Assembly (NCBI GenBank): GCA_041645075.1 | Contig: JBAZQS010000001.1 | Location: 9,147-73,146 of the forward strand | Direction: 5' to 3' | Length of the DNA: 64,000 nucleotides | DNA from: Patescibacteria group bacterium | Lineage (GTDB): Bacteria; Patescibacteriota; Patescibacteriia; 2-01-FULL-39-33 | Program-made: the position numbers and the translations under genes | Part shown: positions 1 to 42,300 of the stretch, in pieces | Position numbering within the stretch: the stretch's first letter is position 1 | How the letters are laid out: every line of letters starts with the position of its first letter | The notes under the pieces: model-generated | The model's input: only the letters and a program-made list of their open reading frames with translations | Databases searched by the model: none | What the model was told of the DNA's origin: nothing

Positions 1-22
1 GCGCGTCTAAGATTAAAAATAT

Positions 23-96
23 GGATCGGTAGCTCAATTGGTTAGAGCGCTGCCCTGTCACGGCAGAGGTCGCGGGTTCAAGTCCCGTCCGGTCCG
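23..96 (+). tRNA. tRNA-Asp (anticodon GTC)
   Basis: Read by eye. Acceptor ggatcgg/ccggtcc (one G-U pair), D-arm gctc...gagc, anticodon stem ctgcc/ggcag with loop ctGTCac, T-arm gcggg-ttcaagt-cccgt, discriminator g. CCA is not encoded. Confidence 0.85.
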
Positions 97-103
97 CGGA
101 CTT

Positions 104-140
104 AAAACAAAAACAGGATTTTAATCCTGTTTTTGTTTTA
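104..140 (+). terminator. Rho-independent terminator after tRNA-Asp
   Basis: Hairpin aaaacaaaaacagga-ttttaa-tcctgtttttgtttt followed by a T-run. Confidence 0.6.
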
Positions 141-305
141 TAATCTGCTGTGCAGATTGGGACTTGAACGGGCAGAAGCGAGACAAATTTTGCGCTGGAT
201 TTTGCCAGCGCAAAATACTGGCGAGCGTAGACAAATGCGACCATAGGAGCATTTGGCTACGCCCAGGGCGAAGAAGCTTGAGCGGAAGCGAGAGCGATGA
301 GAAAT

Positions 306-360
306 GTCCCGTCCGGTCCGAATTCACGAAAACAGAGTTTGATCTCTGTTTTTTGTTTTA
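306..360 (+). repeat. Direct repeat of the tRNA-Asp 3' end (15 nt, 306-320) plus a terminator-like hairpin resembling the one at 104-140
   Basis: gtcccgtccggtccg at 82-96 is identical at 306-320. The hairpin gaaaacagag-tttgat-ctctgttttttgtttta at 328-360 parallels the one at 104-140. Confidence 0.7.
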
Positions 361-422
361 TTTTAAGGTGTATCGGTTGTATTATTCGTATCAATATGAT
401 ACGATTAAGTAGTATAAATGAT

Positions 423-1490
423 ATGAACAAAAGTATGGCCAAAGTAGATAAAAAACAACAAACAATCATTAATCTCATATTGGATGGGGCTGTTTTGTCA
501 TCTTCAAAAATACACCAAAAGATGACAAAAGCAGGAGAAGATGTCTCTCTAATAACAGTCAAAAGAATTTTAACTCAGATGGTTAATGCTGGCCTGCTGG
601 ATAAAAGCGGCGCTGGACGCACGACTATTTATGCGGTAGGCATTAAAGGAAGAATATTATCTGACGTTAAAGCTAAAGAATATTGCAGCGTTGAGCCGGA
701 TAAGCGCACAGGATTAAAAGGACATAATTTTGGATTATTTAAAAATATTCCGGAAGATATTTTCAGTCAGGAAGAATTAAAAATTTTAAATGAAGCCACC
801 GCTCGATACCATCAACGAACTAAAGATTTATCCTCGGTTATTGAAAAAAAGGAATTAGAGCGTTTGATTATTGAGTTGTCTTGGAAATCGTCCAAAATCG
901 AAGGGAATACCTATACCTTGCTTGATACAGAAAAATTGATTTTAGAGAATAAGGAAGCGCCCGGGCACGACCCAAAAGAAGCGCGGATGATTTTAAACCA
1001 TAAAGAGGCCTTTAATTATGTCCGTGAACACGCCGATAAATTTAAAACTTTGACTCGTAAAAATTTAGAAGAGCTGCACTCGATTTTAGTTAAAGGTTTG
1101 AGTGTGGAATTGGGACTGCGAAAAAGGCCGGTGGGTGTTTTGGGTTCGATTTATCGACCACTTGATAATGCCCAGCAAATTTTTGAAGCCGTGGAAGCTT
1201 TAGGCGGGGCGATAATAAAAATGACGGATCCCTATGCCAAGGCGTTAATTGCTATTTTAGGCCTGAGCTATATTCAACCGTTTGAGGATGGCAATAAAAG
1301 AACATCGCGTCTTTTGGCTAACGCCACGCTTTTGGCGTATGGCTGTGCTCCTCTTTCATACCGCAGTGTTGATGAAAACGATTATCGTGAAGCGATTTTG
1401 GTTTTTTATGAGCTCAATTCCGTTATGCCGTTTAAGAAAATATTCATTTCGCAGTATGAATTTGCGGCTAATAATTATGCGGTGAAATAG
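423..1490 (+). CDS. Fic/Doc family protein with N-terminal winged-HTH; degenerate catalytic motif (QPFEDGNKRTSR in place of HPFx[DE]GNGRxxR)
   Basis: ORF 297..1490. The N-terminal extension overlaps the tRNA repeat and hairpin, so the start is more likely M at 396, 423 or 435. Inhibitory-helix-type motif SSKIEGN is present; the Fic core motif lacks the His and has GNKR. Confidence 0.75.
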   Translation: MNKSMAKVDKKQQTIINLILDGAVLSSSKIHQKMTKAGEDVSLITVKRILTQMVNAGLLDKSGAGRTTIYAVGIKGRILSDVKAKEYCSVEPDKRTGLKGHNFGLFKNIPEDIFSQEELKILNEATARYHQRTKDLSSVIEKKELERLIIELSWKSSKIEGNTYTLLDTEKLILENKEAPGHDPKEARMILNHKEAFNYVREHADKFKTLTRKNLEELHSILVKGLSVELGLRKRPVGVLGSIYRPLDNAQQIFEAVEALGGAIIKMTDPYAKALIAILGLSYIQPFEDGNKRTSRLLANATLLAYGCAPLSYRSVDENDYREAILVFYELNSVMPFKKIFISQYEFAANNYAVK

Positions 1491-1511
1491 CGGGTTTTTT
1501 GATATAAAAAG

Positions 1512-1538
1512 AACCAGAAATGAGATTTTCTGGTTCCA
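1512..1538. terminator. Bidirectional terminator hairpin between convergent genes
   Basis: aaccagaaa-tgagatt-ttctggtt flanked by a T-run and an A-run. Confidence 0.55.
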
Positions 1539-1554
1539 GGTAGAAAGGATAAAA

Positions 1555-1788
1555 TTAGATTTGATAATCTGCCTTATCATCTTTCATCCAGCCGATTGGG
1601 ATTTTGTTCCAAATGCGTTCATGAAAATAGTACAAAACAATTTTTGTGAAAATTTCTACCAGACCAATCGTGAGGGCGAGTTTTACGCGGCCGGTGACAA
1701 AAAATGAAATTACCATAGTGTCTAAGGTGCCGGTCAGCCGCCAAGATATGGCTTTGACAATGCTCCGCCAATGTCTTTCTTTGATCAT
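1555..1788 (-). CDS. Small membrane protein, DUF2061-like
   Basis: 77 aa with two hydrophobic helices and motifs SWRLTGT...YYFHERIW typical of DUF2061. Recalled family; not searched. Confidence 0.55.
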   Translation of the reverse strand: MIKERHWRSIVKAISWRLTGTLDTMVISFFVTGRVKLALTIGLVEIFTKIVLYYFHERIWNKIPIGWMKDDKADYQI

Positions 1789-1967
1789 CGCGTCTAAATC
1801 CTCTCTATTGGGAATTATTATACTTACTTGTTTGTCAGTATTTGACCATAAGATAGCACGCCGGTATGCTTTTGTAAAGAAGTGAATTTAAGCCATGGCT
1901 TAAAATAAAAATCCCCCGTCCCAATGTCACATGGGGGCGGGGGTGATTTGTTTAAATGAAGTCCTTT

Positions 1968-2789
1968 TTAGGGCTTAGCCGATGAAAGGGGACCGGAAGT
2001 TTCGTCTTGGATTGAGAGCGCTGGCTTTGGCCCAAAGTCCATAAATTGGTCGGTATCGCCTATCGCCCAATCTTTGGTCGAAATCTGATAGTTGCCTTCC
2101 TCAAGTATTTTTATGGTTTGGTCAATCTGATTAAAGTCAATTTGCATTGCCGCTGATAATCTATCATTTAATTCTTTAACCCTATTGCCAACCGCCTCGG
2201 GAGTCAGTTGGCGCATTTGCGTTTCATCATAGAAGTTGAGCAGGGTCTGGTTTTTTTCCGTGAGCCCTTTTTTAATGGCCGAGCTCCTGGCGACAATCTC
2301 TTTAAGATAATACCTGCGGTTTACGGTTCTAAGGCAGGCCGGGTCGCTTGGGGGCCGGCCGGCTTTTCTCATTTCCGCGTAGGCCTTTATCTCAAATGAT
2401 TCGTTGTGGCGCCATTGCTCGAGCCGGGTTTCGTTGTTTTGAAAATTGATTCGGTTCTGGCGCAACTCGTCAGCAATATTTTTAAGACCGGGTGGTAAAT
2501 TATTAATCGGTGATATTTCAATACCATAACCTGATTCAATGCCCTGGCCTAAATCATTAGGTAGGGGAATATAATTGGCGGAGGTGATTTTGGCGTGTTG
2601 GCCCCAGAATTTTTTCGGCCTAAAGTGCTGCCAGGTGGCCAAGCTGGCGGTGGCGATCAGGGCGATTATCGTTATGGTCATCTTGATGGAAGTTCTCGAC
2701 GGCAACTGCGGTTCCGGTGGCGATGTTACCGGTAACCCCTCGCACATGGCCGGCGGTGGCGGCGGTTCCTCACCATTTAACTGTTTCAT
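1968..2789 (-). CDS. Mosaic-family membrane/secreted protein D (Pro-rich N-terminus, TM, KFWG motif shared with the 4989..6263 protein)
   Basis: 273-aa ORF. N-terminal EEPPPPP...TM...RPKKFWGQHAKITS parallels PKCKFWGKQAASAT in the 4989..6263 protein. Alternative start at M near 2683. Confidence 0.6.
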   Translation of the reverse strand: MKQLNGEEPPPPPAMCEGLPVTSPPEPQLPSRTSIKMTITIIALIATASLATWQHFRPKKFWGQHAKITSANYIPLPNDLGQGIESGYGIEISPINNLPPGLKNIADELRQNRINFQNNETRLEQWRHNESFEIKAYAEMRKAGRPPSDPACLRTVNRRYYLKEIVARSSAIKKGLTEKNQTLLNFYDETQMRQLTPEAVGNRVKELNDRLSAAMQIDFNQIDQTIKILEEGNYQISTKDWAIGDTDQFMDFGPKPALSIQDETSGPLSSAKP

Positions 2790-2924
2790 TGGCTTTCTCC
2801 CTTTTTAATTTGTTTCAAATGGCAACTATTATTTAGGTTTTTAAGGTGCTGATTATTAGTTTATATATATAACAAAAAAGATTTTTTGTCAAATTCAGAT
2901 TTTATTTATTTTAGCAAAAAATTT

Positions 2925-2952
2925 CCCCGCGCGCTTTTATGAGTTTGCGGGG
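2925..2952. terminator. Terminator hairpin downstream of gene 2997..3815
   Basis: ccccgcgcgc-ttttatgagttt-gcgggg. Confidence 0.5.
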
Positions 2953-2996
2953 AAATAGATTATTTTTGCCGGCAGATTTTATTGTTGCCGGCCCGG

Positions 2997-3815
2997 TCAT
3001 TCTTTGGCCGCTATTTTTCCTCGGAGTTTGTCCAAAATCGGTTGAAGAGCAATTTTTAGCTTCTCCCGCTCTTCCTGGCTCATTTGGAAAAATTCTGATT
3101 TGGTTCGGTTTAAAAGAGCGTTGTTTGGAATTGGCAATCCCAGAACGCGATAGTAAATTCCCTGCGGTTCGGGCCGTTCCAAGTCAAACCAAGAGACCAG
3201 ATTATTTTTATCCAACATCGCGGGAAAAGTATTGGCTGGCGGCGTCATTGGTTCCTGGGAAAGAATATCAATTGTCCTTGCCAGTTCGCTGATTAGAAAT
3301 TGTTTTTTCTTGTCTACCGGTGGATTGATGGCGACAGGAACTGGCGTGGATAATGGGTCCGGTTGAGTGGCGACGGTTTTTTTAGGAGCGGGAGTTGGAG
3401 TTGGAGCGGCGAATATTTTTGCCGCCGGTTCCGTTGATTGAGGCGGCCTAAAAAAATCAACTTGGGGCGCTTTGTTTTCTTGAAAGCCGTAGTTATTGCT
3501 TGAGCCGTTCCAGTTATAGCCGTTCCAGCCCTCGCCATAGCCGGTTCTATTTCGGGAAATTTTGACGATGGCTTCAGTGGCCAAATCTCTGGCTTCGGGG
3601 TCTTTAATGGTGGCGGCCGAGAGAATGCCAGCGGTTTCATCTAAATGGCCGCCATAGCGCATCGCCACCTGGCCGGAATCCACTCGGCCGGCCGGGTCGC
3701 CATACTTCAATGTTTCGGCCGGAGAATGAAACCGGCTCGCGCTGGTCTGAAATTGGTTGTCTGTTTGGGCGCAGGCAGCCAAAAAAAACAAGCCGACAAA
3801 CACCGAGAATTTCAT
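2997..3815 (-). CDS. Lipoprotein, mosaic family member A (C-terminal ~110-aa domain shared with the 4228..4785 ORF)
   Basis: Signal peptide with lipobox FFLAAC. P/T-rich linker. C-terminal region QFLISELARTIDILSQEPM...EFFQMSQEEREKLKIALQP is near-identical to the 4228..4785 ORF. Confidence 0.7.
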   Translation of the reverse strand: MKFSVFVGLFFLAACAQTDNQFQTSASRFHSPAETLKYGDPAGRVDSGQVAMRYGGHLDETAGILSAATIKDPEARDLATEAIVKISRNRTGYGEGWNGYNWNGSSNNYGFQENKAPQVDFFRPPQSTEPAAKIFAAPTPTPAPKKTVATQPDPLSTPVPVAINPPVDKKKQFLISELARTIDILSQEPMTPPANTFPAMLDKNNLVSWFDLERPEPQGIYYRVLGLPIPNNALLNRTKSEFFQMSQEEREKLKIALQPILDKLRGKIAAKE

Positions 3816-3971
3816 TTTTGGATACCTCCATTTTTCAAATAAATAGATTTCTTGCCTCTTGGTTAATTTTATTAAGGTGCTGACTGATGATTGTTAACTT
3901 AATTTTATTATAGTTATAGAAATTTGTAAATGGTTTTGAGGTATATGTTTTGGTGTATAAATAAAAAAATC

Positions 3972-4002
3972 CCCCGTAAAGTTTTTAGTGAACTTTACGG
4001 GG
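3972..4002. terminator. Conserved terminator hairpin (copy 1)
   Basis: ccccgtaaagtt-tttagtg-aactttacgggg. A near-identical copy lies at 4925..4956. Confidence 0.6.
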
Positions 4003-4033
4003 TATTTATTGGCGTAGTTTTGATTTGCCTGCT

Positions 4034-4785
4034 CTATTCGCTGGGCGTCTCAATAACCTCATCATCAACGGCCGGAGGAGCGGGAGCAGGTATAATTAGG
4101 CGGGTGCAGGTCTTTCGGCGCTTTCTTGGGGCTTCCAAAGCGGCCGACGGTTTTAAGACGATTGACCGCTCTGTTGTAATACTCCTCTTTGGCGTCTTCT
4201 TCATCGCGCATCTGGCGTAACCCGCCGTTAATGTCGCTTTTCCCACTCTTCGCATATCTTGCGTAACCCGTCGTTAAGTTGCTTTTTCCACTCTTCGTGA
4301 GCGGTTAAGCGTTTTTCTGCCAGCGATTTTTTTGGCAGTTGCTGTTGTAAATTTTTCAAAACCGGCTGGAGGGCAATTTTCAGTTTCTCCCGCTCTTCCT
4401 GGCTCATTTGGAAAAATTCTGATTTGGTGCGACTAAGCAAGGACTGATTTTGAATCGGCAGGCCCAGAACGCGGTAGTAAATTCCCTGCGGTTCGGGCCG
4501 TTCCAAGTCAAACCAAGAGACCAGCTTATTTTTATCCAACATCGCGGGAAAGGCATTGGGCGGCGGCACCATTGGTTCTTGGGAAAGAATATCAATGGTT
4601 CTTGCCAGTTCGTTGATTAGAAATTGCGTCTGCTTTTCCGAGAGATGGCCAATCGCAGTAGTCGTGGTTGTGGTTAAAGTCGCTTTTTTTGCGGCTGATT
4701 TTTTTTGTTGAGCCAAGGCATTGGCGCTAAACAAAAAAATGATAACTAAAAACATCACAACTTGTCTCATTTTAATTTCCTCCAC
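4034..4785 (-). pseudogene. Mosaic family member B, frame-disrupted (signal peptide + shared domain X + Y-tail)
   Basis: ORFs 4228..4785 and 4034..4255 are the same gene in different frames. A 46-bp tandem duplication (4215-4260 / 4261-~4300) and a 2-nt deletion near 4085 relative to paralog C break the frame. The conceptual repaired C-terminus matches ...YYGKAIKRLKTVGRFGSPKK...PAPPTVDDEVIEAPSE of 4989..6263. Confidence 0.6.
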
Positions 4786-4924
4786 CTTTTCAAATTTTTT
4801 TAATGCCGAGTTTATGTTTTATTAAGGTGCCAATTTATTATTTATAGGATATAACAAAAAATAGCTTATGTCAAACCAAGTTTGCGCGCGTGCCTAAAAC
4901 AGAGATATTTTTAGTAAAAAAAGT

Positions 4925-4956
4925 CCCCGTAAAGTTCTTGGTGAACTTTACGGGGG
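4925..4956. terminator. Conserved terminator hairpin (copy 2)
   Basis: ccccgtaaagtt-cttggtg-aactttacggggg. Confidence 0.6.
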
Positions 4957-4988
4957 TATTTGTTGGCGTGGCTCTGATTCCGTCTGCT

Positions 4989-6263
4989 TTATTCGCTGGG
5001 CGCCTCAATAACTTCGTCATCAACGGTCGGAGGAGCGGGAGGAGCAGGCACATTGGGCGGGTACAGGTCTTTCAGCGCCTTTTTGGGGCTACCGAAACGG
5101 CCAACGGTTTTAAGGCGTTTGATTGCCTTGCCGTAATACTCCTGTTTAGCCTTTGTTTCTTCGCGCCTCTGACGTAACGCGCCGTCAAGTTCCTTTTCCC
5201 ATTTTTCGTGAGCGATTAAGCGTTTTTCATGATCAGTCAACTGGCTCTCGATTGGCTTGAGCCGTTCGTTGAGTTGCGCGGGTTGGACGGCGGTCCTGGT
5301 TTTGTCCAGGTTATTCCTCTTGGCGGCTAACTCCTCCTTTAGGTTGCCGTCATGCAGAGCTTTTTCGGCCTCGTCCTCGGTCTTGCCATCGGCGATGAGC
5401 TCGACCTTGTCACGAGCATCCAACCCCGCTTTTACCCGTTTGACTTCCGCCCTCACTTGTTTGACTTCCGTCGCCAGTCCATCAAGCGTAATTATTGTCG
5501 TGATGGTGGTGCCGGCGGAAGCAGTGGTCGCACCCTTTTTCTGTGAGGCGGTGACCAACCCGGTCTTCTTGTCCTTGGCTGGCGTTTCCGATTTGGCAGC
5601 GAGCGAAGCTGAGGTTTGAGCGGCCATAACGGCGGTGGCGAGCTTGGCCGGGAGTTCGGCGATTTCCTTCTGGATATCGCCTTGACCCATAGCAATGTCG
5701 ATGAGCTGTTCGACCTGCTCCTTCCTCAAAGGGATGCCGTTTTCCATCATGGACTTACCTAATCCCTGGATGGCCTCGACGATGTCCTTGTTCGCGTTCG
5801 TCGTGGTCGCATGAGCGGTCGTTGTGGCCGTCGCGGAGGCGGCCTGTTTGCCCCAGAATTTGCATTTCGGCCAGGTAAAGTACCCATAGAGAAAACCGGC
5901 GATGGCGACCAGGACGATCATCGTCCAGACGATTTTGCCGAAAGTTCGTGGCGCCGGTGCCGGTTGCGGCGATGGCCGAAACTCAACTCGTGCCGACCGG
6001 GGCCGCCCAAGGGATGGCGCCGGTTGTGCCGTCGATTGCGGTGGCAACTCTTCTTGTGGCGGCGGCACTGCGTGCGACCGACCGGTCTGCGGCGGCGCCT
6101 CGTCTAAAGGCGGCAGCCGAATCTCCTCGTCCAAGGGCGGTTGAGGATTCGGGTTCGGTCCCTGGTCCTCGTGTTCCGGCGGCAGAGTCGGCTGGAGCGA
6201 TTCGGGCGGTGGCGGTTGATTGGCCCGCGGCCGCGATTGATTTTCCCTCTTTGGCTTTGGCAT
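4989..6263 (-). CDS. Mosaic family member C: Pro-rich cytoplasmic N-terminus, single TM, T/A-rich spacer, coiled-coil, conserved Y-tail
   Basis: 424-aa ORF. Architecture: PPPP/PQP low-complexity N-terminus, TM IVWTMIVLVAIAGFLYGYF, ATATTTAHATTT, long charged coiled-coil region. The C-terminus is shared with pseudogene B. Confidence 0.65.
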   Translation of the reverse strand: MPKPKRENQSRPRANQPPPPESLQPTLPPEHEDQGPNPNPQPPLDEEIRLPPLDEAPPQTGRSHAVPPPQEELPPQSTAQPAPSLGRPRSARVEFRPSPQPAPAPRTFGKIVWTMIVLVAIAGFLYGYFTWPKCKFWGKQAASATATTTAHATTTNANKDIVEAIQGLGKSMMENGIPLRKEQVEQLIDIAMGQGDIQKEIAELPAKLATAVMAAQTSASLAAKSETPAKDKKTGLVTASQKKGATTASAGTTITTIITLDGLATEVKQVRAEVKRVKAGLDARDKVELIADGKTEDEAEKALHDGNLKEELAAKRNNLDKTRTAVQPAQLNERLKPIESQLTDHEKRLIAHEKWEKELDGALRQRREETKAKQEYYGKAIKRLKTVGRFGSPKKALKDLYPPNVPAPPAPPTVDDEVIEAPSE

Positions 6264-6436
6264 AATTATGCCCTCCTTTTTCCTTTCAAATTTTAAAATT
6301 GGTTTTAAAGGTTCGGTTTTTTGACTCTTTTTATATGACTAAGGTCCTTTGTTATCGGACTTATCATTGTATCATATAATCATAATTTTGTCAATAGATT
6401 TAATGAGAGTTAATGAATTTTTTGTTTATTTTATTA

Positions 6437-6466
6437 AAAAAACCGCTAAATTTAGCGTTTTTTTAT
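6437..6466. terminator. Bidirectional terminator downstream of rplT
   Basis: aaaaaaaccgctaaatttagcgttttttt palindrome with flanking A-run and T-run. Confidence 0.55.
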
Positions 6467-6495
6467 CAAGAATTATTCAGGAATTATTGAGAAAT

Positions 6496-6840
6496 TTACT
6501 TAATTTTTTCTATTATTTTAGCAAAAATAATTGGTTGTTTCTGGGCGATTTCGGCTAAGACCTTTCGGTCTAATTCTATCTTGGCCTTCTTTAAACCGCC
6601 GATAAATTTACTATAAGAAAGGCCGTGTTCCCTGACCGCGGCATTAAGCTGGATTTGCCATAATTGTCTGGCCGTTCTTTTTTTTGTCCGGCGGTCTCGG
6701 TAAGCATAAACGCCGGCCTTGGTAACGGCGGTCTTGGCTAATTTGATTAATTTTTTTCGGCCCCATTTATAACCCTTGGCTTGTTTTAAGATATTCCGGC
6801 GGTTTTTGGCATGGGTCATTCCTCGTTTTACTCTCGGCAT
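6496..6840 (-). CDS. rplT: 50S ribosomal protein L20
   Basis: 114 aa, MPRVKRGMTHAKNRRNILKQAKGY... a canonical L20 N-terminus. Confidence 0.92.
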   Translation of the reverse strand: MPRVKRGMTHAKNRRNILKQAKGYKWGRKKLIKLAKTAVTKAGVYAYRDRRTKKRTARQLWQIQLNAAVREHGLSYSKFIGGLKKAKIELDRKVLAEIAQKQPIIFAKIIEKIK

Positions 6841-6910
6841 ATTTTTTAAATCTTTAAATTATTATATTGTTTATATTATTAAACCACTAGACCCGATGGA
6901 TATTTATATA

Positions 6911-7087
6911 ATTTTCAATTTTAGAATTTTGAATTTTGAAATAATGATTTAATGTCATCGCGAGCGAAGCCCGAGCGTCAGGAGGGCGAAGCGTGGCGAT
7001 TTTATTGCAGTTAGATTGCTTCGTCGCCGATTACGGCTTCTCGCAATGACAATTTCAAAATTATTTCAAAATTCAAAATTTTTAATT
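6911..7087. repeat. Long imperfect inverted repeat / nested hairpin element (~175 bp) in the rpmI-rplT spacer
   Basis: Left arm ttttgaattttgaaataatgatttaatgtcatcgcgagcgaagcc and right arm ggcttctcgcaatgacaatttcaaaattatttcaaaattcaaaa are reverse complements. The GC-rich core has its own inner hairpin (ggcgaagc...gcttcgtcgcc). Confidence 0.6.
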
Positions 7088-7279
7088 ATAAGGCATTGAT
7101 TGTCTGATGGTTTTTCGGTCTGACTTGGCGATTTGGACGTCGCGCCTTTTATGGCGCTTGGTCTTGCCCGACTCGCGGGCGTTAAAATGGTCTTGGCCGG
7201 CCATTCTTTTTATTATTTTTTTCTTTTTGGTTATTTTGAATCTTTTAGCAACCGCTTGCCGGGTTTTTATTTTTGGCAT
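7082..7279 (-). CDS. rpmI: 50S ribosomal protein L35
   Basis: 65 aa, MPKIKTRQAVAKRFKITKKKKIIKR... Confidence 0.9.
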   Translation of the reverse strand: MPKIKTRQAVAKRFKITKKKKIIKRMAGQDHFNARESGKTKRHKRRDVQIAKSDRKTIRQSMPYN

Positions 7280-7299
7280 GTTTTTAATTTATAAGTTTA

Positions 7300-7360
7300 T
7301 AAGTTACTAAGTTTATAAGTTTTTTCCCCTTAGCGACTCACCAACTTATAAACTTAGTAA
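7300..7360. repeat. Perfect 20-bp inverted repeat hairpin between infC and rpmI
   Basis: agttactaagtttataagtt ... aacttataaacttagtaact with a 20-nt loop. Possible intercistronic regulatory or processing structure. Confidence 0.55.
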
Positions 7361-7367
7361 CTGAATT

Positions 7368-7925
7368 TTAATAGGAAATAATCGCGGAAAATTTATTGCC
7401 CAATTGTTTTAATTCCTGCTCTATTTTTAAAATTTTATTTTCTGATTTTATCTGGATTTCATTGATGGTCCGGCGAATGGTTTCCCGGGCCAAATCCGCA
7501 TGCTGGTTTTCCCGGCCTCTTAATTGGATTTCTATTTTAACCTTGTCGCCGCCTTTTAAAAATTTAATCGCTTGCTCAATCCTAAATGCCATATCATGCT
7601 GGCCGATTCTGGTTGAGAGCTTAATGGTTTTTATTTCAATGGTTTTTTGCTTGGCTTTGGCTTTTCTTTCCATTTTTTCGCGCTGATATTTGAAACTGCC
7701 GTAATTCATAAATTTGGCGATTGGCGTTTCCGCTTTGGGCGAAACCTCAACCAAGTCCAAGCCCCTGGCCTGCGCTTCGGCCAAGGCCCGCTCTTTGGGC
7801 ATTGGGCCGAGATTTTGGCCGTTTTCATCAATAATAATCAGCTCGCGGGTAAAAATTTTTTCATTGATTCGGAATTCTTTGAAAGATTCTTTTTGGAAAT
7901 TTTTTCCTTTGAAGGATTTTCTCAT
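7368..7925 (-). CDS. infC: Translation initiation factor IF-3
   Basis: 185 aa. IF-3 N- and C-domain sequence (ELIIIDENGQNLG...LVEVSP...KFMNYGSFKYQ). Operon order infC-rpmI-rplT. Confidence 0.9.
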   Translation of the reverse strand: MRKSFKGKNFQKESFKEFRINEKIFTRELIIIDENGQNLGPMPKERALAEAQARGLDLVEVSPKAETPIAKFMNYGSFKYQREKMERKAKAKQKTIEIKTIKLSTRIGQHDMAFRIEQAIKFLKGGDKVKIEIQLRGRENQHADLARETIRRTINEIQIKSENKILKIEQELKQLGNKFSAIISY

Positions 7926-8004
7926 TAAAATTGTTTATTTAATTTATTCATCTATATTATTTAATTATACTACAGGCCATTAGCGATTAGCCATAGGCCA
8001 TTAG

Positions 8005-8381
8005 TGGAGATGAGGAGGGTGAACTCCTGTCTAGAAGCCAGACATAAATCAGGATACAAGTTTAGCTCTTTTTTTAAACCAAGGCCTCAAAAAAGAGCAA
8101 AATGGTCTTGGTTGTTCTTGGTAATTTTAAATGATAATTTCCAAGAAAAATTATCACCGAGCCCGATATATGACACCGCTTCTTGCTTATCAGGCCATCA
8201 GCAAGACGATGGCTGTTAAACCTTGTTAGGCAACAGCAGGGGCTAAAGCCAATCCGCGGAAAGCGAATTTTACTTTAGTCAATAAGTTTTTTGCACTTAT
8301 GTTTTGATAATTAGTTTGCGAGCAATTATCAATCTCGCCTTGCTAATTTATGGCTTAGCTTCTATCGAAACAGACATCCCC
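8005..8381 (-). ncRNA. ssrA: tmRNA (SsrA)
   Basis: On the minus strand the 5' end GGGGATGTCTGTTTCGATAG resembles the E. coli tmRNA 5' end (GGGGCUGAUUCUGGAUUCGAC). The 3' end AGGAG-TTCACC-CTCCT-CATCTCCA forms a T-arm plus acceptor pairing with the 5' GGGGATG. A GCA resume-like codon sits at nt 88-90, as in E. coli. It opens a frame ...FAFRGLALAPAVA-TAA. Immediately downstream of and co-oriented with smpB. Confidence 0.75.
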
Positions 8382-8927: not shown

Positions 8928-9986
8928 GTGGCGGCTCAAAGCAATCAGAAAAACATTACCATTAATATTTCTTCGTTAACCTTGATGAAGGTCTTGTTTA
9001 TCATTGCCTTGGTCGGACTGCTGTTTTATATTAAAAGCGTTTTATTAATAATTTTTGTGGCTTTGATTTTGGCGTCGGCGCTTGACCCGTGGGTGGATTG
9101 GCTGCAAAAACATAAAATTCCCCGATCCTTTAGCATTCTTCTGATTTATTTGGTTTTACTGTCGGTTATCGGCGGCATTATTTATTTAATCATACCACCA
9201 ATAGTCAAGGAAGTGAACCAGTTAACCGCCGACTTTCCGGTCTATTGGCAAAATATAATTAAGACCTTTGCCGATTTTCAAAATTATTCCGACAGTCACG
9301 GCTGGTCAGCCAATATTCAGAGTTCTTTAAAAGTCCTGCAAACCAATATCGGCGGAGTAGCGGGCGATGTTTTTAGCACTATATTTTCTTTCTTTGGCGG
9401 CGTCATTTCATTTCTTATTATTTTAGTGATCACTTTTTATCTCACCGTAGAAGAAAAATCCCTAAAACGACTAATTCGTTCGCTCGTGCCCGTAAAGTAT
9501 CAGCCCTATTTTACCCACTTGGTTAATCGGATACAAGAGAAAATCGGCCAATGGTTGCGCGGCCAGCTAATACTTTCTTTGATAATTTTTGTGGTTGTTT
9601 TTTTGGGGTTGACGATTTTGGGCGTAAAATATGCTTTGGTCTTGGCCTTGTTTGCCGGTATTACTGAATTGATTCCTTATCTGGGGCCGACCATTGGCGC
9701 CATTCCGGCGGTTTTTATCGCTTTCACTCAATCACCCATGCTCGCTCTTTTTGTGATTTTACTTTATATTTTAGTTCAATTTTTGGAAAATCATATTATC
9801 GTGCCCAAAGTCATGCAGAAAGCGGTCGGACTTAATCCGGTGGTGGTAATCGTGGCCATGCTGATTGGCGCTAAATTGGCCGGTATCTTGGGCGTGATTT
9901 TAGCCGTGCCCGTGACCACGGCCCTGGGCGTTATTTTGAGCGACTTTATTGAAATAAAACAGGAAGAGGGGGATATAGAAGTATAA
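8928..9986 (+). CDS. AI-2E family transporter (PerM/UPF0118) membrane protein
   Basis: 352 aa, multiple TM helices, motif GITELIPYLGPTIGAIP characteristic of the family. Confidence 0.8.
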   Translation: MAAQSNQKNITINISSLTLMKVLFIIALVGLLFYIKSVLLIIFVALILASALDPWVDWLQKHKIPRSFSILLIYLVLLSVIGGIIYLIIPPIVKEVNQLTADFPVYWQNIIKTFADFQNYSDSHGWSANIQSSLKVLQTNIGGVAGDVFSTIFSFFGGVISFLIILVITFYLTVEEKSLKRLIRSLVPVKYQPYFTHLVNRIQEKIGQWLRGQLILSLIIFVVVFLGLTILGVKYALVLALFAGITELIPYLGPTIGAIPAVFIAFTQSPMLALFVILLYILVQFLENHIIVPKVMQKAVGLNPVVVIVAMLIGAKLAGILGVILAVPVTTALGVILSDFIEIKQEEGDIEV

Positions 9987-39302: not shown

Positions 39303-42300
39303 ATGACCGCGATTGTCAAAAAGAAAAAATTCATAGCGTTTGTCCTGATTTTGGTTTTGGCCGGAATTTTTATTCTATTCAATCCGATTTTGGCCCAAGA
39401 CCAATTCGGCTTAAACAGCGCCGCGGGCATCGGCTTGGCGCAAAATGACCTTAAAACCACCATTGTCAATATCGTCAGGATATTTTTGGGATTTTTGGGA
39501 TTGGTGGCCGTGATTTTGATTATTTACGCCGGCTTTTTGTGGATGACGGCGGGCGGTGACGAAAAAAAAATTGAAACGGCAAAAAAAATAATTTTAGGCG
39601 CGGTCATTGGCTTAATTATTATTCTGTCGGCGTTTGCCATTGTTTCTTTTGTTTTAACCAGGTTGGCGCCACCGCCGGCCGAGCCATGCGTGTCCGGGAC
39701 AATCGTTAGTTGCGGACCGCAGGGCTGCGGCAGTAAAATTTGCGTCAATGGGAGTTGGGGCGTTTGTAATATCAACACCTCCGCCTGCGACTTTATTCTT
39801 AATAACAAATTAAGCTACATAAAATATTTCCGCTCCGATAAAATACCGGCGGCCGGAAACACTTTTTCAAATTGGACCAGAAACATCAGTTATAATTTTA
39901 GCGGCGTGGTCGGCGTGCCAAAAATAGATGATTTGTCGGTCGGCGCTTACGCGCGAAATAGAGGCGGCTTCATAACCGATACGCGATTATATAAAGTGGA
40001 GGGCTTTGACGGCACAGTTTTTACCGACTACGGCCCATTTAATCCAAATCAAACCCCCAACGAAGAATTTGACACCCAAATTGCTTGGGACACTTCGGCT
40101 TTGAATTTGCAATCAGAATGGAAAATAAAAACTCATGTTGTGCCAAGCGGTATTGCCACGCCATTTGAGTCGCCGGCTATTAAAACAAAAATTAGAGCGC
40201 CCAACTGCTTCAACGGCATCCAGGACTCACAATCGCCTTATGGCGAAACCGGCATTGATTGCGGCGGCAACCCGGCCAGCCAATATTATTGCGGGGCGTG
40301 CGGGGGAGAAAGTTGCAGCAACGGCGGCGACAGCAGCCAATGTCTTGACGAAAATTGCGCCACCAGCGTCTGCCTGCCAATTAATTGCCTGTGCGCCCAA
40401 AATCCGATTATTGATTGGATTGAGCCCGATAATGGCGCGGCCGGGAATTATGTCACCATCGGCGGCCGCTATTTCGGCAATTTAAAGGGCGCGGTTTATT
40501 TTGGCAATACCCGGGCTAATTTGGAATTAAATCCCGAATGCAACAGCACTTGGACCAGCAACCAGATTATCGTGGAGGTGCCGGCCATCGCGCAAAACAC
40601 TTATCAGGTGACGGTCCAGACCCATCAGGATTTTGGCGGTTTAACCAGCAACAGCAAGGACTTCATTCTTAATAATATTGTCCGGCCCGGCCTTTGTAAT
40701 GTTTATAATTTGGATATTTATACGGATAGAAATGTAAAAATAAACGCCGGCTCGGCGAATCAAACAGGCCAGCTTATCGGCGCGAATTTTCCGACCACCG
40801 GCCTCAAAAATGTTGTCTGGAAATTTCTTCCCACCAACACCACCAGCACCGGTTCCAATTGGGCCATAGATAGAGCCCGCGACTTGGTGCCGGAGAACAA
40901 GAGGGGGATGACCAATTTAAATGTTTATAACGGCGCGCAGTATAGTAATCCGTTTAGATTTTTAGTCAGTCCGGGCGGGATCGGCGACCCCTGCGGTTTT
41001 GCCGATGATTCGCCCGGCATTTGTTCGGCGGCAGAGGTTTGCCAGACCGGCCTGGAATGTAATATTTTGGCTACTCCCACTAAGCCGGCTTGTACTTGCC
41101 AATCAGCCGCCAATTTTTGCAATAATAACGGCCAAGTGGAAGGCACGGAAGAGTGCGACGGCACGGCTTTTAAAGACAATAAAAATCAATGTTCAAATTA
41201 TCCCGGCTTTACCGGCGGCGCGCTATCCTGCAACCGACAATGCCGACCAGACACCTCGCAATGTGTCAGTGTTTCCACCACTAACATACCGGCGGGCATG
41301 GGTATATTCACTTGGTCGTTCAATACGATAATCAGCCCGCCCACGCCGTATAGTTGCGGCTATGACCAATATGGCGCCTGCAGTATAAGCGGCTGCGCCA
41401 CGGGCCAGAGATGCGAGGTTCAGGGCAATAGTGACGAATTTATTGAATTTTATAATCCGACTGGCTACACCGTTAATAATTTCGGCGCCTGGTTATTGGT
41501 TATCAATAAAACAAATACTTCTACCATCTCAAATTTTTTGCCGGCGGGCGCCAGCGCTTCAATTCCGGCCAGGGGCTTTTTTGTTTTGCCGCGAAGCGCT
41601 CAATTTGGCTTGCCGCCCGCTTACTCGGGAGCCGTAACCATTAAATTGGTGCGGTCAGCCAACACGGCTTATGATGATAAAATTACCTATGGCGGTCCCG
41701 GCAAATTGCCCTTAGCCATTGCCCCAACTTCTTTGGGCCGGAAAATTGACGGCCTTGAAAGTAGAAGCATATTTTCCGATCCCCTTGTTTTTACTGATTT
41801 TTCTGTTTTTGCCCGTTCCACTAAAGGCGTCTCTAACAGCGCGGAACCAGCCAAAACAGGCGCTCGTCTACTTATTAATGAAATTTCCGTGGGCATTGAC
41901 CCTTGCACTTGCCGGCCAGCCGCGCTCGCTACCTGCGCCAACGGCCTATTGGATGTGGGCGAGATTTGCGATCGGGTGGGCAATGAGGACGTATTCCAGC
42001 GCGGCACTGGCCTTTGCTCGGATTATAATATCGGCTCAACCGGCCGGTTATCCTGCCGGAATTGCCAGATTGATAAGAGCAGTTGCCAAGGTCCTTTAGT
42101 CGATATCACCCAAGCGGCCATTGGTATGTACACCTGGTCGTTTAATACGATTAGCCAATCGCCATTTCAACGGCCTTATGTGGTGGAGGACTGCAGTCGG
42201 ACAAGAAGTTGTGATGTCGGCGCTAAAATGGCCAGCCCCACCCCCTGGAGCGAAGAATGGAATCAAGTCAAGCACCCCAATTTATATATTCCTCAACCAT

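Follow-up and report, generated by a model that had tools for sequence, protein, structure and literature searches.

Elements integrated at tRNA genes are framed by attL/attR repeats, and the sites of tyrosine integrases include a sublocation in the T loop. RNAs that resemble tRNA include the tRNA-like domain of tmRNA, viral tRNA-like structures, and bacterial YrlA; split and permuted tRNA genes are known from archaea and red algae; and a further point of comparison is offered by non-autonomous IS200/IS605-type elements and the omega RNAs of TnpB and IscB. A large part of bacterial diversity belongs to the Patescibacteria, which have tiny genomes and are known for odd RNA biology, with introns in rRNA and tRNA genes. 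The group I introns of their tRNA genes lie in the anticodon loop, at position 35/36, and are recognized by Rfam group I models (PMC13011429).

The locus described here lies in a 64-kb window—the whole stretch of Patescibacteria DNA that was analyzed, 64,000 nt. It shares with attL/attR elements a direct repeat running from the T loop to the 3' end of a tRNA, an intact tRNA at one end, tandem arrays at the same tRNA, and an occupancy that varies among relatives. It differs from them in having only ~110–210 nt between the repeats, with no integrase and no cargo, an interior that is one conserved structured module whatever the tRNA, and an extra, inverted copy of tRNA sequence. Positions 159–320 of the window are one copy of a previously uncatalogued structured, RNA-like family in Patescibacteria, which we call X.

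The tRNA-Asp 3' End Recurs around a Structured Module

The initial annotation had reported that the last 15 nt of tRNA-Asp recur exactly downstream, and this proved correct: GTCCCGTCCGGTCCG lies at 82–96 (the tRNA-Asp 3' end) and again at 306–320, with ~210 nt (209 nt) between the copies, and a search of both strands of the 64 kb allowing up to two mismatches returned just these two matches. Shuffling gave an expectation of 0.05, with two or more matches in none of 100 shuffles. An independent assembly of the same organism (L047, whose position 3579 is window position 1) differs by 2 mismatches in 5,490 nt and carries the identical repeat structure, which is therefore not an assembly artifact. 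The similar terminator hairpins annotated behind the two copies are likewise present, each with its T-run, the hairpin regions being 73% alike over 33 nt.

An exact inverted repeat had been overlooked: the 11-mer GTTCAAGTCCC at 76–86 (T loop and T stem) reappears as its reverse complement GGGACTTGAAC at 159–169, and the match is unique in the window. The features of the locus are as follows:

17–41, +, 25-nt direct repeat AAATATGGATCGGTAGCTCAATTGG, copy 2: tRNA-Asp nt 1–19 preceded by 6 nt of leader
23–96, +, intact tRNA-Asp (GTC), no CCA encoded (ARAGORN 23–97; Rfam RF00005, 71.3 bits)
76–96, +, part of the tRNA copied into X: G53, T loop, T-stem 3' strand, acceptor 3' strand, discriminator
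76–86, +, template of the inverted 5' arm
82–96, +, direct-repeat copy 1
103–140, +, hairpin 1, 18-nt fully complementary arms with an A-tract 5' and a T-tract 3' (inverted-repeat search)
139–144, +, TATAAT, a −10-like hexamer 14 nt 5' of the 5' arm (read from the sequence)
142–158, +, small local hairpin AATCTGC-TGT-GCAGATT, not conserved in the family (MFE fold)
159–320, +, X module (~160 nt), starting 62 nt after tRNA-Asp
159–169, +, X 5' arm GGGACTTGAAC, exact reverse complement of tRNA nt 53–63 (window 76–86)
170–175, +, P2 5' strand GGGCAG (RNAalifold, pair counts)
176–186, +, conserved purine-rich junction AAGCGAGACAA (alignment A2), partly fixed by the search pattern
187–216, +, variable hairpin Pvar, 12-bp stem ATTTTGCGCTGG / CCAGCGCAAAAT (inverted repeat, fold)
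217–228, +, conserved junction ACTGGCGAGCGT, family consensus GCAGNCGAGCGU (alignment A2)
229–258, +, P3 hairpin, with covarying lower stem and internal A-G (231/256)
259–264, +, P2 3' strand ACGCCC
265–275, +, conserved linker AGGGCGAAGAA of the long-type 3' extension, family consensus CAGGGCAACGAAG
276–295, +, P-ext hairpin GCTT-GA-GC-GGAA-GC-GA-GAGC
296–305, +, linker GATGAGAAAT from P-ext to the 3' arm, family consensus GAGGCGGAA
306–320, +, X 3' arm, equal to direct-repeat copy 2 and to tRNA-Asp nt 59–73
328–363, +, hairpin 2 and T-run (328–353 plus TGTTTTATTT), terminator-like site (terminator scan)

Hairpin 1 has the form of a bidirectional intrinsic terminator, putatively that of tRNA-Asp; its frame AAAACAAAAA...TTTTTGTTTTA is common to the related locus L040, its loop is only 2 nt, and it did not pass a simple terminator scan. 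Hairpin 2 may be either a terminator-like end of the element or the original tRNA terminator. The TATAAT at 139–144 is a putative promoter of X, to judge from its sequence and position; other copies have GATAAA, GATAAT, or TATAAA hexamers 2–10 nt 5' of the 5' arm, and a promoter scan gave no full −35/−10 match.

The core of X is a three-way junction in which helix P2 encloses the variable hairpin and hairpin P3. Outside it, GGGAC of the 5' arm would pair with GTCCC at 306–310 (helix P1), and the TT of the same arm may pair with A303–A304 over a 1-nt bulge; P1 in the window copy amounts to only about 5–7 bp. P2 forms only 4 of its 6 pairs here (mismatches A174–C260 and G175–A259). The tip of P3 reads GC-GA-C[CATA]G-AG-GC, with tandem G-A/A-G, and P-ext consists of a 4-bp covarying stem, tandem G-A/A-G, 2 bp, and a GNRA tetraloop. 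The 3' arm comprises the end of the T loop, the T-stem 3' strand, the acceptor 3' strand, and the discriminator. For the window copy, the fold energy is −76.4 kcal/mol (z = −5.8).

X Is a Family with Both Ends Templated on the Adjoining tRNA

How widespread is X? A core pattern taken from the window copy retrieved 44 metagenome loci, one of them apparently by chance, leaving 43 that are related; a covariance model (R1) gave 48 matches, or 38 non-redundant copies, with sizes of ~105–200 nt. A tRNA gene lies upstream on the same strand in 27 of the 38, and 17 anticodon classes are represented. In these 27 copies X is always on the tRNA strand (27/27), 42–225 nt away and usually 42–90 nt. Within the window itself, only one of the six tRNAs has a copy.

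Both arms follow the tRNA next door. The 3' arm is a direct copy of the tRNA from about nt 56–59 to the discriminator or CCA; the longest match to its own tRNA is typically 17 nt (median), compared with a median of 6 and a 95th percentile of 9 for mismatched pairings of arm and tRNA, and the repeat ranges from 6 to 25 nt across copies. The 5' arm is the reverse complement of the tRNA from nt 53 to about nt 63 or beyond, and always ends on the complement of G53. It tracks variant T loops (TTCAAGT, TTCGAGT, TTCAACT, TTCAATT, TTCGACT, TTCGATT, TTCGAAT, TGCAACT, and TGCAATT), with one mismatch in the TTCGACT copy and one for TGCAATT, and follows the unusual loops TGCAACT (L020) and TGCAATT (L003) even at positions that are unpaired within X. 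Mismatches in the 5' arm show no G-U bias (1/5 G-U), which argues against strong selection on pairing. The arms also follow the genome's own tRNA allele (...GTCCGGTCCG in the window, ...GTCCAGTCCG in L040); some arms have decayed or stem from a foreign allele (L025).

Copy number and arrangement vary. One contig has three copies at two tRNA-Met genes (L020), another has copies at the Lys and His tRNA genes (L008), and tandem arrays with truncated or miniature copies occur at five loci (L027, L035, L021, L004, and L043). An orphan copy with no tRNA nearby retains a tRNA-His-type arm (L007), and some copies bear 5' tRNA fragments instead. The paralogous cores in L020 appear substantially diverged by eye while their arms are still perfect; cores that look so diverged give no sign of recent transposition.

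All-against-all BLASTP of ORFs within 5 kb at 42 loci found no recurrent neighbor and returned only spurious ORFs overlapping X itself, and no recombinase, transposase, or reverse transcriptase was linked to X. Three core or extension patterns had 0 matches in viral contigs, scans that lend no support to a phage origin. With Rfam 15, at gathering and permissive thresholds, no family overlapped X in the window or in 13 loci: only tRNA and tmRNA were found, with isrK, miRNA, and leader models as subthreshold matches on terminator hairpins. A literature search that included sequence strings found no description of X.

Several specific identities were considered and rejected. A MITE does not fit, since the inverted and direct arms are target derived and change with the tRNA, and the 6- to 25-nt repeat has no fixed length. 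For RNase P, SRP, and 6S RNA no model matches and the signature motifs are absent; a tmRNA-like role is contradicted by the normal tmRNA already present in the window (8002–8381) and by the missing T arm. A T-box-like attenuator would need arms complementary to the downstream terminator, which they are not, and there is no conserved downstream gene. The N*GUC site of a hairpin ribozyme occurs only with T loops ending in GT, the integron attC core-site consensus does not fit, and the 5' arm usually stops short of the tRNA 3' terminus that a retroviral-type primer-binding site would include. An RNA from the minus strand would lose the G-U pairs, GNRA loop, and G-A tandems.

Covariation and RNA-like Character

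In alignment A3, which was fitted to the model, 98.6% of cells in the core helices are paired, with compensatory changes at 16 of the 19 pairs. None of 500 shuffles reached these values, and sliding the partner by 1–3 columns reduces paired cells to 28–40%. Within P3, pair 80/132 is UA in 21 copies and CG in 15, pair 77/135 is CG in 27 and AU in 10, and the tip changes from CC/GG to GC/GC in L020 and L040. Pvar is a hairpin in every copy, with differing sequence and length. The 3' extension hairpin with its GNRA loop and tandem G-A pairs is frequent, and among the 12 long-type copies P-ext has seven different compensating stem variants. The retrieval pattern itself dictated three sequence blocks, the conservation of which is therefore circular.

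G-U pairs are common in X (24 cells), and only the + strand has the GNRA loop and the G-A tandems. Within the limits of a model-fitted alignment, X thus has the compensated helices and strand asymmetry generally expected of structured noncoding RNA. We infer that it is structured as RNA rather than as single-stranded DNA.

The tRNA-Asp Locus in Relatives and Its Neighbors

Comparison with relatives, which the initial annotation had proposed, did reveal variable occupancy at tRNA-Asp. X stands on each side of the tRNA in L040 and in the window genome, only upstream in L002, and in L001 neither upstream nor in the 635 nt visible downstream. The upstream copy in the window genome (X', at L047 3431–3528; 38.9 bits, E 4e-8 with model R1) is a second, diverged one, and it is fused to the first copy of AAATATGGATCGGTAGCTCAATTGG, which lies 200 nt upstream of the second and outside the window (L047 3395–3419). 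In L002 a large serine recombinase (confirmed with Pfam) and a methylase gene lie directly 3' of tRNA-Asp, and in L001 a partial homologous ORF occupies that place; the tRNA-Asp site thus receives mobile DNA. The content between rplT and tRNA-Asp differs between the window and L002. No clean empty site was found among L001, L002, and the window, because the three are not syntenic around tRNA-Asp.

The adjacent gene, annotated as Fic/Doc mobile-element cargo, does encode a Fic domain (PF02661, E 9.4e-13; Pfam), probably starting at 423 or 435 rather than 297. The role as cargo did not stand: homologues 81–83% identical are found in other contexts without tRNA and without X, and the gene is an unrelated neighbor, unlinked to X. 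The catalytic motif HxFx(D/E)GNGRxxR is replaced by QPFEDGNKRTSR in the window and in all five homologues inspected. Exact-sequence look-ups of the window Fic protein (with two start codons) and of a DUF2061 protein gave no match, the public copy differing by one residue.

Origin of X and Alternative Explanations

What kind of element is X? We read it most readily as a non-autonomous structured-RNA element that is associated with tRNA genes in Patescibacteria; it would be either selfish and insertional or a small RNA that mimics tRNA. The full account that we favor, and consider somewhat probable, is an uncatalogued family of tRNA-armed modules that are transcribed, arise by insertion or capture, and are non-autonomous and selfish. 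X would be transcribed from its own −10-like element, with transcription ending at the hairpin after the 3' arm. The arms would pair in the RNA as P1, which would restore the T stem of the tRNA, with the core where the T loop would otherwise be and the acceptor 3' strand as a tail. The module may have originated by insertion at, or capture of, the 3' part of a tRNA gene with the intact tRNA retained, and would persist and spread as a selfish element. Its 5' arm is laid out as an internal guide might be, with an inner part that matches tRNA nt 53–56, upstream of the junction, and an outer part that would pair with X's own 3' arm. Contigs with multiple copies, tandem and truncated arrays, orphans, patchy presence at tRNA-Asp, and the lack of a recurrent protein are expected of such an element. 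Simple insertion does not explain the inverted target copy. The two P2 mismatches and short P1 of the window copy, the 5'-arm mismatches that show no G-U bias, the apparent divergence of the L020 cores, the failure to find a clean empty site, and the lack of a linked recombinase, transposase, or reverse transcriptase also count against this account.

That X is a small RNA gene of the host and not selfish, its RNA being in part a mimic of tRNA or else antisense to it, is possible but unlikely. Such an RNA might act in tRNA maturation, quality control, or protection (e.g., as a decoy for enzymes or toxins that recognize 3' ends) and might have arisen by partial tandem duplication of tRNA genes; an X RNA would show a copy of the tRNA T stem and acceptor 3' strand, hence the reading as mimic or antisense. 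The strongly conserved, covarying core is in keeping with this, as are the consistent tRNA strand (27/27), the −10-like hexamer and the terminator-like hairpins that bracket each unit, the arms that remain perfect while the L020 cores look diverged, and the tRNA-His-type arm kept by the L007 orphan with no adjacent tRNA. Presence is patchy, however, with tandem arrays that include truncated copies and a copy at only one of six window tRNAs; in most copies nothing pairs with the acceptor 3' strand; arms that are decayed or come from a foreign allele occur (L025); and there is no candidate partner protein.

It is less probable still that X acts at the DNA level, as a miniature integrative or cassette-like recombination site (an attP-only minicircle, or an attC-like folded single strand) moved in trans by a recombinase encoded elsewhere. 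Its hairpins would then be DNA structures, and the direct repeat an att identity block that restores the tRNA. The repeat does start in the T loop and end 0–5 nt from the tRNA end, as such blocks do; ~210 nt resembles the size of a lambda-type attP; tandem arrays occur; the stems conserve structure more than sequence; and a serine recombinase island adjoins tRNA-Asp in L002 (and, by the partial ORF, in L001). GNRA tetraloops and long, purine-rich conserved junctions, however, are more typical of RNA; a single core would need a tRNA-specific identity block for each of 17 tRNA classes; the inverted arm, 100–150 nt from the direct arm, is unlike core-type sites; and there is neither a recurrent recombinase within 5 kb of the copies nor a match in viral contigs.

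Slightly more doubtful again, and decidedly improbable, is the idea that X acts on its partner tRNA as an RNA that bears a guide and is either catalytic or assisted by protein. The 5' arm could hybridize to the tRNA from nt 53 on, or to a 3'-damaged tRNA, and the 3' arm of X would then replace the tRNA's own 3' end. Engineered trans-splicing "repair" ribozymes are built in this way, with antisense guide, core, and replacement 3' exon. Alternatively, the guide logic might direct X's own insertion at tRNA genes.

The initial annotation had read the repeat as the footprint of site-specific integration, left by a decayed or excised island. Part of that stands: the repeat is tRNA derived, runs from the T loop to the discriminator, and has the geometry of insertion or integration. 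A functionless attL/attR scar with Fic as leftover cargo is nonetheless very improbable. In its favor are the direct repeat of a tRNA 3' end, the difference from L002 in rplT–tRNA-Asp content, and the recombinase island at tRNA-Asp in L002 (probably also L001). Against it, the interval is itself a conserved, covarying module of ~160 nt found beside 17 kinds of tRNA in 38 non-redundant copies; decay at separate sites would not arrive at one and the same 150 nt, and divergence and covariation exclude a single, recently spread sequence. Fic homologues occur without tRNA or X, and the search for an integrase in wider flanks came back empty over 3.5 kb upstream (4 ORFs, L047) and the first eight ORFs downstream. 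Relatives do not all show equal spacing with no variable content; the remnant reading fails on these other grounds. A chance match or assembly artifact has a negligible probability, given the shuffle result, the identical independent assembly, and an architecture that recurs family-wide.

X is a widespread, covarying, RNA-like module, both ends of which are templated on the adjoining tRNA, and none of the catalogued RNA families or mobile-element types tested accommodates it. If selfish, it would represent a new route by which tRNA genes are colonized harmlessly and with no linked protein. A role in the host would point to unknown tRNA-specific, RNA-based control or repair, and a working guide to small RNA machines of a new class, restricted to the reduced genomes of the candidate phyla radiation. 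For annotation, tRNA 3' repeats of this kind in these genomes should no longer be read as island scars. With the covariance model, surveys and simple in vitro tests can be taken up directly.

Comparison with Known Systems

Like the group I introns of the same phylum, X is a structured RNA tied to tRNA genes, including tRNA-Asp, and has a guide-like 5' arm, part of which is complementary to sequence upstream of the junction while part pairs with the downstream "exon." That arm, complementary to tRNA nt 53–63, spans the start of the repeat, which may merely reflect copying from the tRNA. Unlike these introns, X follows an intact tRNA, has a 100- to 150-nt core, and lacks a conserved terminal G; the Intron_gpI model gave no match at E up to 10 in window 1–1600 or at E up to 1 in 11 loci.

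With non-autonomous IS200/IS605-type elements and omega RNAs, X has in common a small protein-less module in which a scaffold is joined to a 15- to 25-nt segment identical to the flanking target. It differs in having no TnpA, TnpB, or IscB nearby and no HEARO-type match in Rfam, and in its inverted target copy; a "guide" in X would match the intact neighboring tRNA and so would target X's own locus.

tRNA-like RNAs resemble X in being larger RNAs that include the top half of a tRNA (T stem and acceptor strand). X, however, lacks a T loop and, in most cases, an acceptor 5' strand, and its tRNA parts copy the adjacent gene instead of forming a fixed mimic; tRNA and tmRNA detection (ARAGORN and Rfam) called nothing at 159–320, only 23–96. 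Split and permuted tRNAs differ in that X is found in bacteria and beside a complete tRNA gene, with a two-piece layout only at tRNA-Asp (L047, and in degenerate form L040). What they share with X are partial tRNA pieces joined to non-tRNA sequence that pairs across the junction, and in the window genome the tRNA is flanked by X' as the 5' piece and X as the 3' piece, the acceptor strands of which are complementary.

A tRNA-Asp tail repeat encloses a structured module

The tRNA-Asp(GTC) gene at 23-96 is intact (ARAGORN; Rfam tRNA, 71.3 bits), and its 3'-terminal 15 nt, GTCCCGTCCGGTCCG (82-96), recur exactly at 306-320. No third match was found on either strand of the 64 kb with up to two mismatches; two matches compare with a shuffle expectation of 0.05 and were reached in 0 of 100 shuffles. 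A hairpin and a T-run come directly after both copies: the first (103-140) has perfect 18-nt arms, the second (328-353) is the sole terminator-like site from our scan, and the two hairpin regions are 73% alike over 33 nt. The same repeat structure is present in L047, an independent public assembly of this organism that differs from the window by 2 mismatches in 5,490 nt. The tail repeat and the similar terminator-type hairpins described in the initial annotation are thus correct. A third tRNA-derived piece had been overlooked: GGGACTTGAAC (159-169), unique in the window, matches the T loop and T stem (76-86) exactly in reverse complement. This piece and the second 15-mer are the two ends of a conserved structured RNA-like module, which we call X.

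Features of X in the window (159-320, plus strand)
159-169: 5' arm, reverse complement of tRNA nt 53-63
170-175 with 259-264: helix P2, enclosing the junction, Pvar and P3
176-186: junction, AAGCGAGACAA
187-216: Pvar, a variable hairpin
217-228: junction, ending in CGAGCGT
229-258: hairpin P3, with tandem G-A/A-G at its tip
265-275: conserved linker
276-295: P-ext, GCTT-GA-GC-GGAA-GC-GA-GAGC
296-305: linker
306-320: 3' arm, the repeated 15-mer

X belongs to a family of covarying elements

How widespread is this module? A scan of species-representative genomes with the tRNA 3' 47-mer returned two relatives, L001 and L002. In L002, ~100 nt upstream of tRNA-Asp are homologous to window 167-268, sharing the blocks ACGGGCAGAAGCGARACAA, GAGCGT, AATGCGACC, GGAGCATT and GCCCRGG; two hairpins among these blocks differ from those of the window by compensatory changes. 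A gapped pattern drawn from the blocks yielded 44 metagenome loci, one of which, L034, consists of GC-rich coding sequence and appears fortuitous. The covariance model R1, built on 31 sequences (alignment A2), gave 48 matches in the loci retrieved here, 38 of them non-redundant, and recovered copies that the pattern had missed in L020, L027, L040, L008 and L047. A covariance-model search of the window and selected loci against Rfam 15 gave no match to X, and our literature search found no description of it. X is a new family of tRNA-templated, structured RNA-like elements of Patescibacteria.

In alignment A3, which was fitted to the model and in which the three retrieval blocks are invariant by construction, standard pairs occupy 98.6% of cells and 16 of 19 pairs show compensatory changes. 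These pairing and covariation values were reached by 0 of 500 shuffles, and shifting the 3' partner by 1-3 columns lowers pairing to 28-40%. Across 12 long-type copies, the P-ext stem occurs in seven compensating variants. G-U pairs are common in the helices (24 cells), and since the GNRA loop and G-A tandems appear on the plus strand only, the structured strand is that of the tRNA. Folding of the window copy gives -76.4 kcal/mol (z = -5.8); this copy is slightly imperfect, with mismatches at two of the six P2 pairs. Two copies from different X subfamilies (L013 ~8167-8200, minus strand; L030 ~8985-9030) carry the same optional hairpin, CCCGCC(C/T)GCCATGAC(T)GGCA(A/T)GTCGGGCAG, between P3 and the 3' strand of P2; it looks like a modular expansion segment.

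The arms of X are templated on the adjacent tRNA

A same-strand tRNA gene lies upstream of 27 of the 38 copies, at a distance of 42-225 nt (mostly 42-90 nt). These partners span 17 anticodon classes (Gln, His, Asp, two Met, Gly, two Lys, two Glu, Trp, Cys, Ser, Tyr, Pro and three Leu). Measured by the longest exact match, the 3' flank of X agrees with the 3' end of its own tRNA over a median of 17 nt (range 6-25), against 6 nt (95th percentile 9 nt) when tRNA and X are mismatched. The repeat begins at about nt 56-59, in the T loop, and continues to the discriminator and 0-5 nt beyond, taking in CCA wherever it is gene-encoded, and the 5' arm ends at the complement of G53 in every case. The 5' arm tracks the variant T loops that we read, TTCAAGT, TTCGAGT, TTCAACT, TTCAATT, TTCGACT, TTCGATT, TTCGAAT, TGCAACT and TGCAATT, with one mismatch each in the TTCGACT and TGCAATT copies; in L020 and L003 this holds even for 53-56, positions that are unpaired within X. 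In L027 and L035 the long arm is the 5' arm (16-25 nt); since that of L027 includes 2 nt of the trailer, its template was the gene or precursor, not mature tRNA. Arms also match the allele of their own genome (window ...CCGGTCCG versus ...CCAGTCCG at L040, another tRNA-Asp locus). Three copies lie at contig ends. Five are orphans that retain a tRNA-like 3' arm; one (L007) is preceded by a protein gene and keeps the tRNA-His arm and upstream spacer of L018. Together, these data show that X is a conserved, strand-specific, covarying module with both ends templated on the adjacent tRNA.

Three copies at tRNA-Gln (L025, L037 and L045) have a 3' arm, CGAATCCCTGTTCCGGAGCCA, with five acceptor-stem differences from the adjacent gene, CGAATCCCTCCTCCCCAGCCA (e.g., L025 4449-4470), as if copied from another tRNA-Gln allele; their 5' arm is eroded as well. 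Upstream of X in L043 (~1230-1460) are two further units, each with a tRNA-Gln-like 3' end and terminator; the interior of one is GC-rich and structured but of another kind, and R1 does not match it. Other families with this tRNA-tail design may exist.

X copies also occur upstream of tRNA-Asp in L002, L040 and the window's own genome, their 5' side fused to a copied 5' or middle part of the tRNA. In L047, an exact 25-nt repeat (3395-3419 and 3595-3619, the latter being window 17-41) comprises 6 nt of the tRNA-Asp leader and nt 1-19 of the gene. Its first copy precedes a GA-tandem hairpin and a diverged core, X' (38.9 bits), with TAGAGCG (the 3' side of the D stem) and a 7-bp hairpin 3' of the core; the whole region (L047 3395-3560) lies 18-184 nt upstream of window position 1. 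The window's tRNA-Asp is thus flanked on both sides, by X' upstream and X downstream, and L040 has the same double arrangement. X' carries the acceptor 5' strand and X the acceptor 3' strand, and these two strands are complementary.

Neighboring genes and mobile DNA

Which genes accompany X? Comparison of the 5 kb around its copies showed no recurrent protein family. An integrase, which the initial annotation proposed to seek in the extended flanks, was found neither in the 3.5 kb upstream (L047) nor among the first eight ORFs downstream; the four upstream ORFs are one TrbC/T4SS pilin and three with no informative Pfam match. The Fic gene (423-1490; PF02661), earlier described as common mobile-element cargo, has thousands of homologues, the best 64-83% identical and several labelled Patescibacteria or Candidatus Wildermuthbacteria, in line with an organism of that phylum. 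Those in L048 and L049 (81-83% identical) sit amid glycosyltransferase or MerR/DUF4325 genes with neither tRNA nor X, and because such close homologues occur without them, we regard Fic as an unrelated neighbor.

The Fic motif (~1279-1314) reads QPFEDGNKRT(S/A)R, whereas the catalytic form is HxFx(D/E)GNGRxxR; the catalytic His and second Gly are thus replaced, as they are in all five inspected homologues (64-100% identical), which share the motif. The domain is unlikely to be a canonical AMPylase. The N-terminal, winged-helix-like region has weak FUR and Penicillinase_R matches. A palindrome, (A)TCGTATCAATATGATA(C/T)GAT(T), lies ~15-80 nt 5' of the Fic start (window 382-408; L048 ~3900-3920; L049 ~3951-3972) and is kept before Fic homologues in unrelated genomic settings; it looks like a candidate operator for autoregulation by the wHTH-Fic protein.

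In L002 (1774-6638), tRNA-Asp is directly followed by a large serine recombinase gene (Resolvase, Recombinase, Zn_ribbon_recom), antisense and running into the tRNA 3' end, and then by an N6-methylase/HsdR-N fusion gene. This is an integrated mobile element, so the site does attract mobile DNA. A partial ORF at the same position in L001 (7327-7992, minus strand) looks homologous by eye. The window and L002 share the block of tmRNA (8002-8381), infC (7368-7925), rpmI (7082-7279) and rplT (6496-6840). In the window, ~5 kb separates rplT from the inverted X'-tRNA-X segment and holds four minus-strand ORFs without Pfam matches (1968-6263), a DUF2061 gene and Fic. GC over this stretch (within 1555-8381) reaches 45-50%, versus ~40% elsewhere, and ORFs 2997-3815 and 4228-4785 have a near-identical C-terminal module. 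Farther on, a single ORF (39303-51581; 4,092 aa) is of a size typical of giant surface proteins of candidate-phyla bacteria.

What X may be

We infer from its flanks that X is transcribed: many copies have a -10-like hexamer 2-14 nt ahead of the 5' arm, and a terminator-like hairpin follows the 3' arm in most of the copies read by eye. In short-type copies the stretch from tRNA to X lacks a hairpin, and the two could be co-transcribed. Pairing of the arms in the RNA (P1) would rebuild the T stem, with the core replacing the T loop, and leave the acceptor 3' strand protruding.

We lean toward X being a selfish, non-autonomous element, one that settles at tRNA genes and leaves the tRNA intact, a statement whose descriptive part is far more secure than its mechanism. 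X is multi-copy, occurs in tandem arrays in which some units are truncated or miniature (L027, L035, L021, L004, L043 and L020) and is patchy among relatives, with orphans; one core subfamily is found at Ser, Tyr and Lys, another at Trp, Glu, Gln and Gly. However, an empty site was looked for and not found, no recently duplicated copies are apparent, the origin of the inverted arm lacks a mechanism, and 5'-arm mismatches show no G-U bias. Less likely, in our view, is a host small RNA acting as a mimic or pairing partner of its own tRNA. The att-like reading of the initial annotation holds for the geometry, a tRNA-tail repeat, but not for the content, a conserved covarying module between the repeats, and an attP/attC-like site acting at the DNA level and moved in trans seems improbable. 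The decayed or excised island remnant proposed earlier, a functionless scar, is very hard to reconcile with an interval whose covarying module has 38 non-redundant copies and 17 anticodon classes, and chance or artefact is scarcely credible. If X is a selfish element, its 5' arm could serve target recognition: its layout resembles that of a group I internal guide, in that the 3' part matches the tRNA immediately upstream of the repeat start and the 5' part pairs with the element's own 3' arm.
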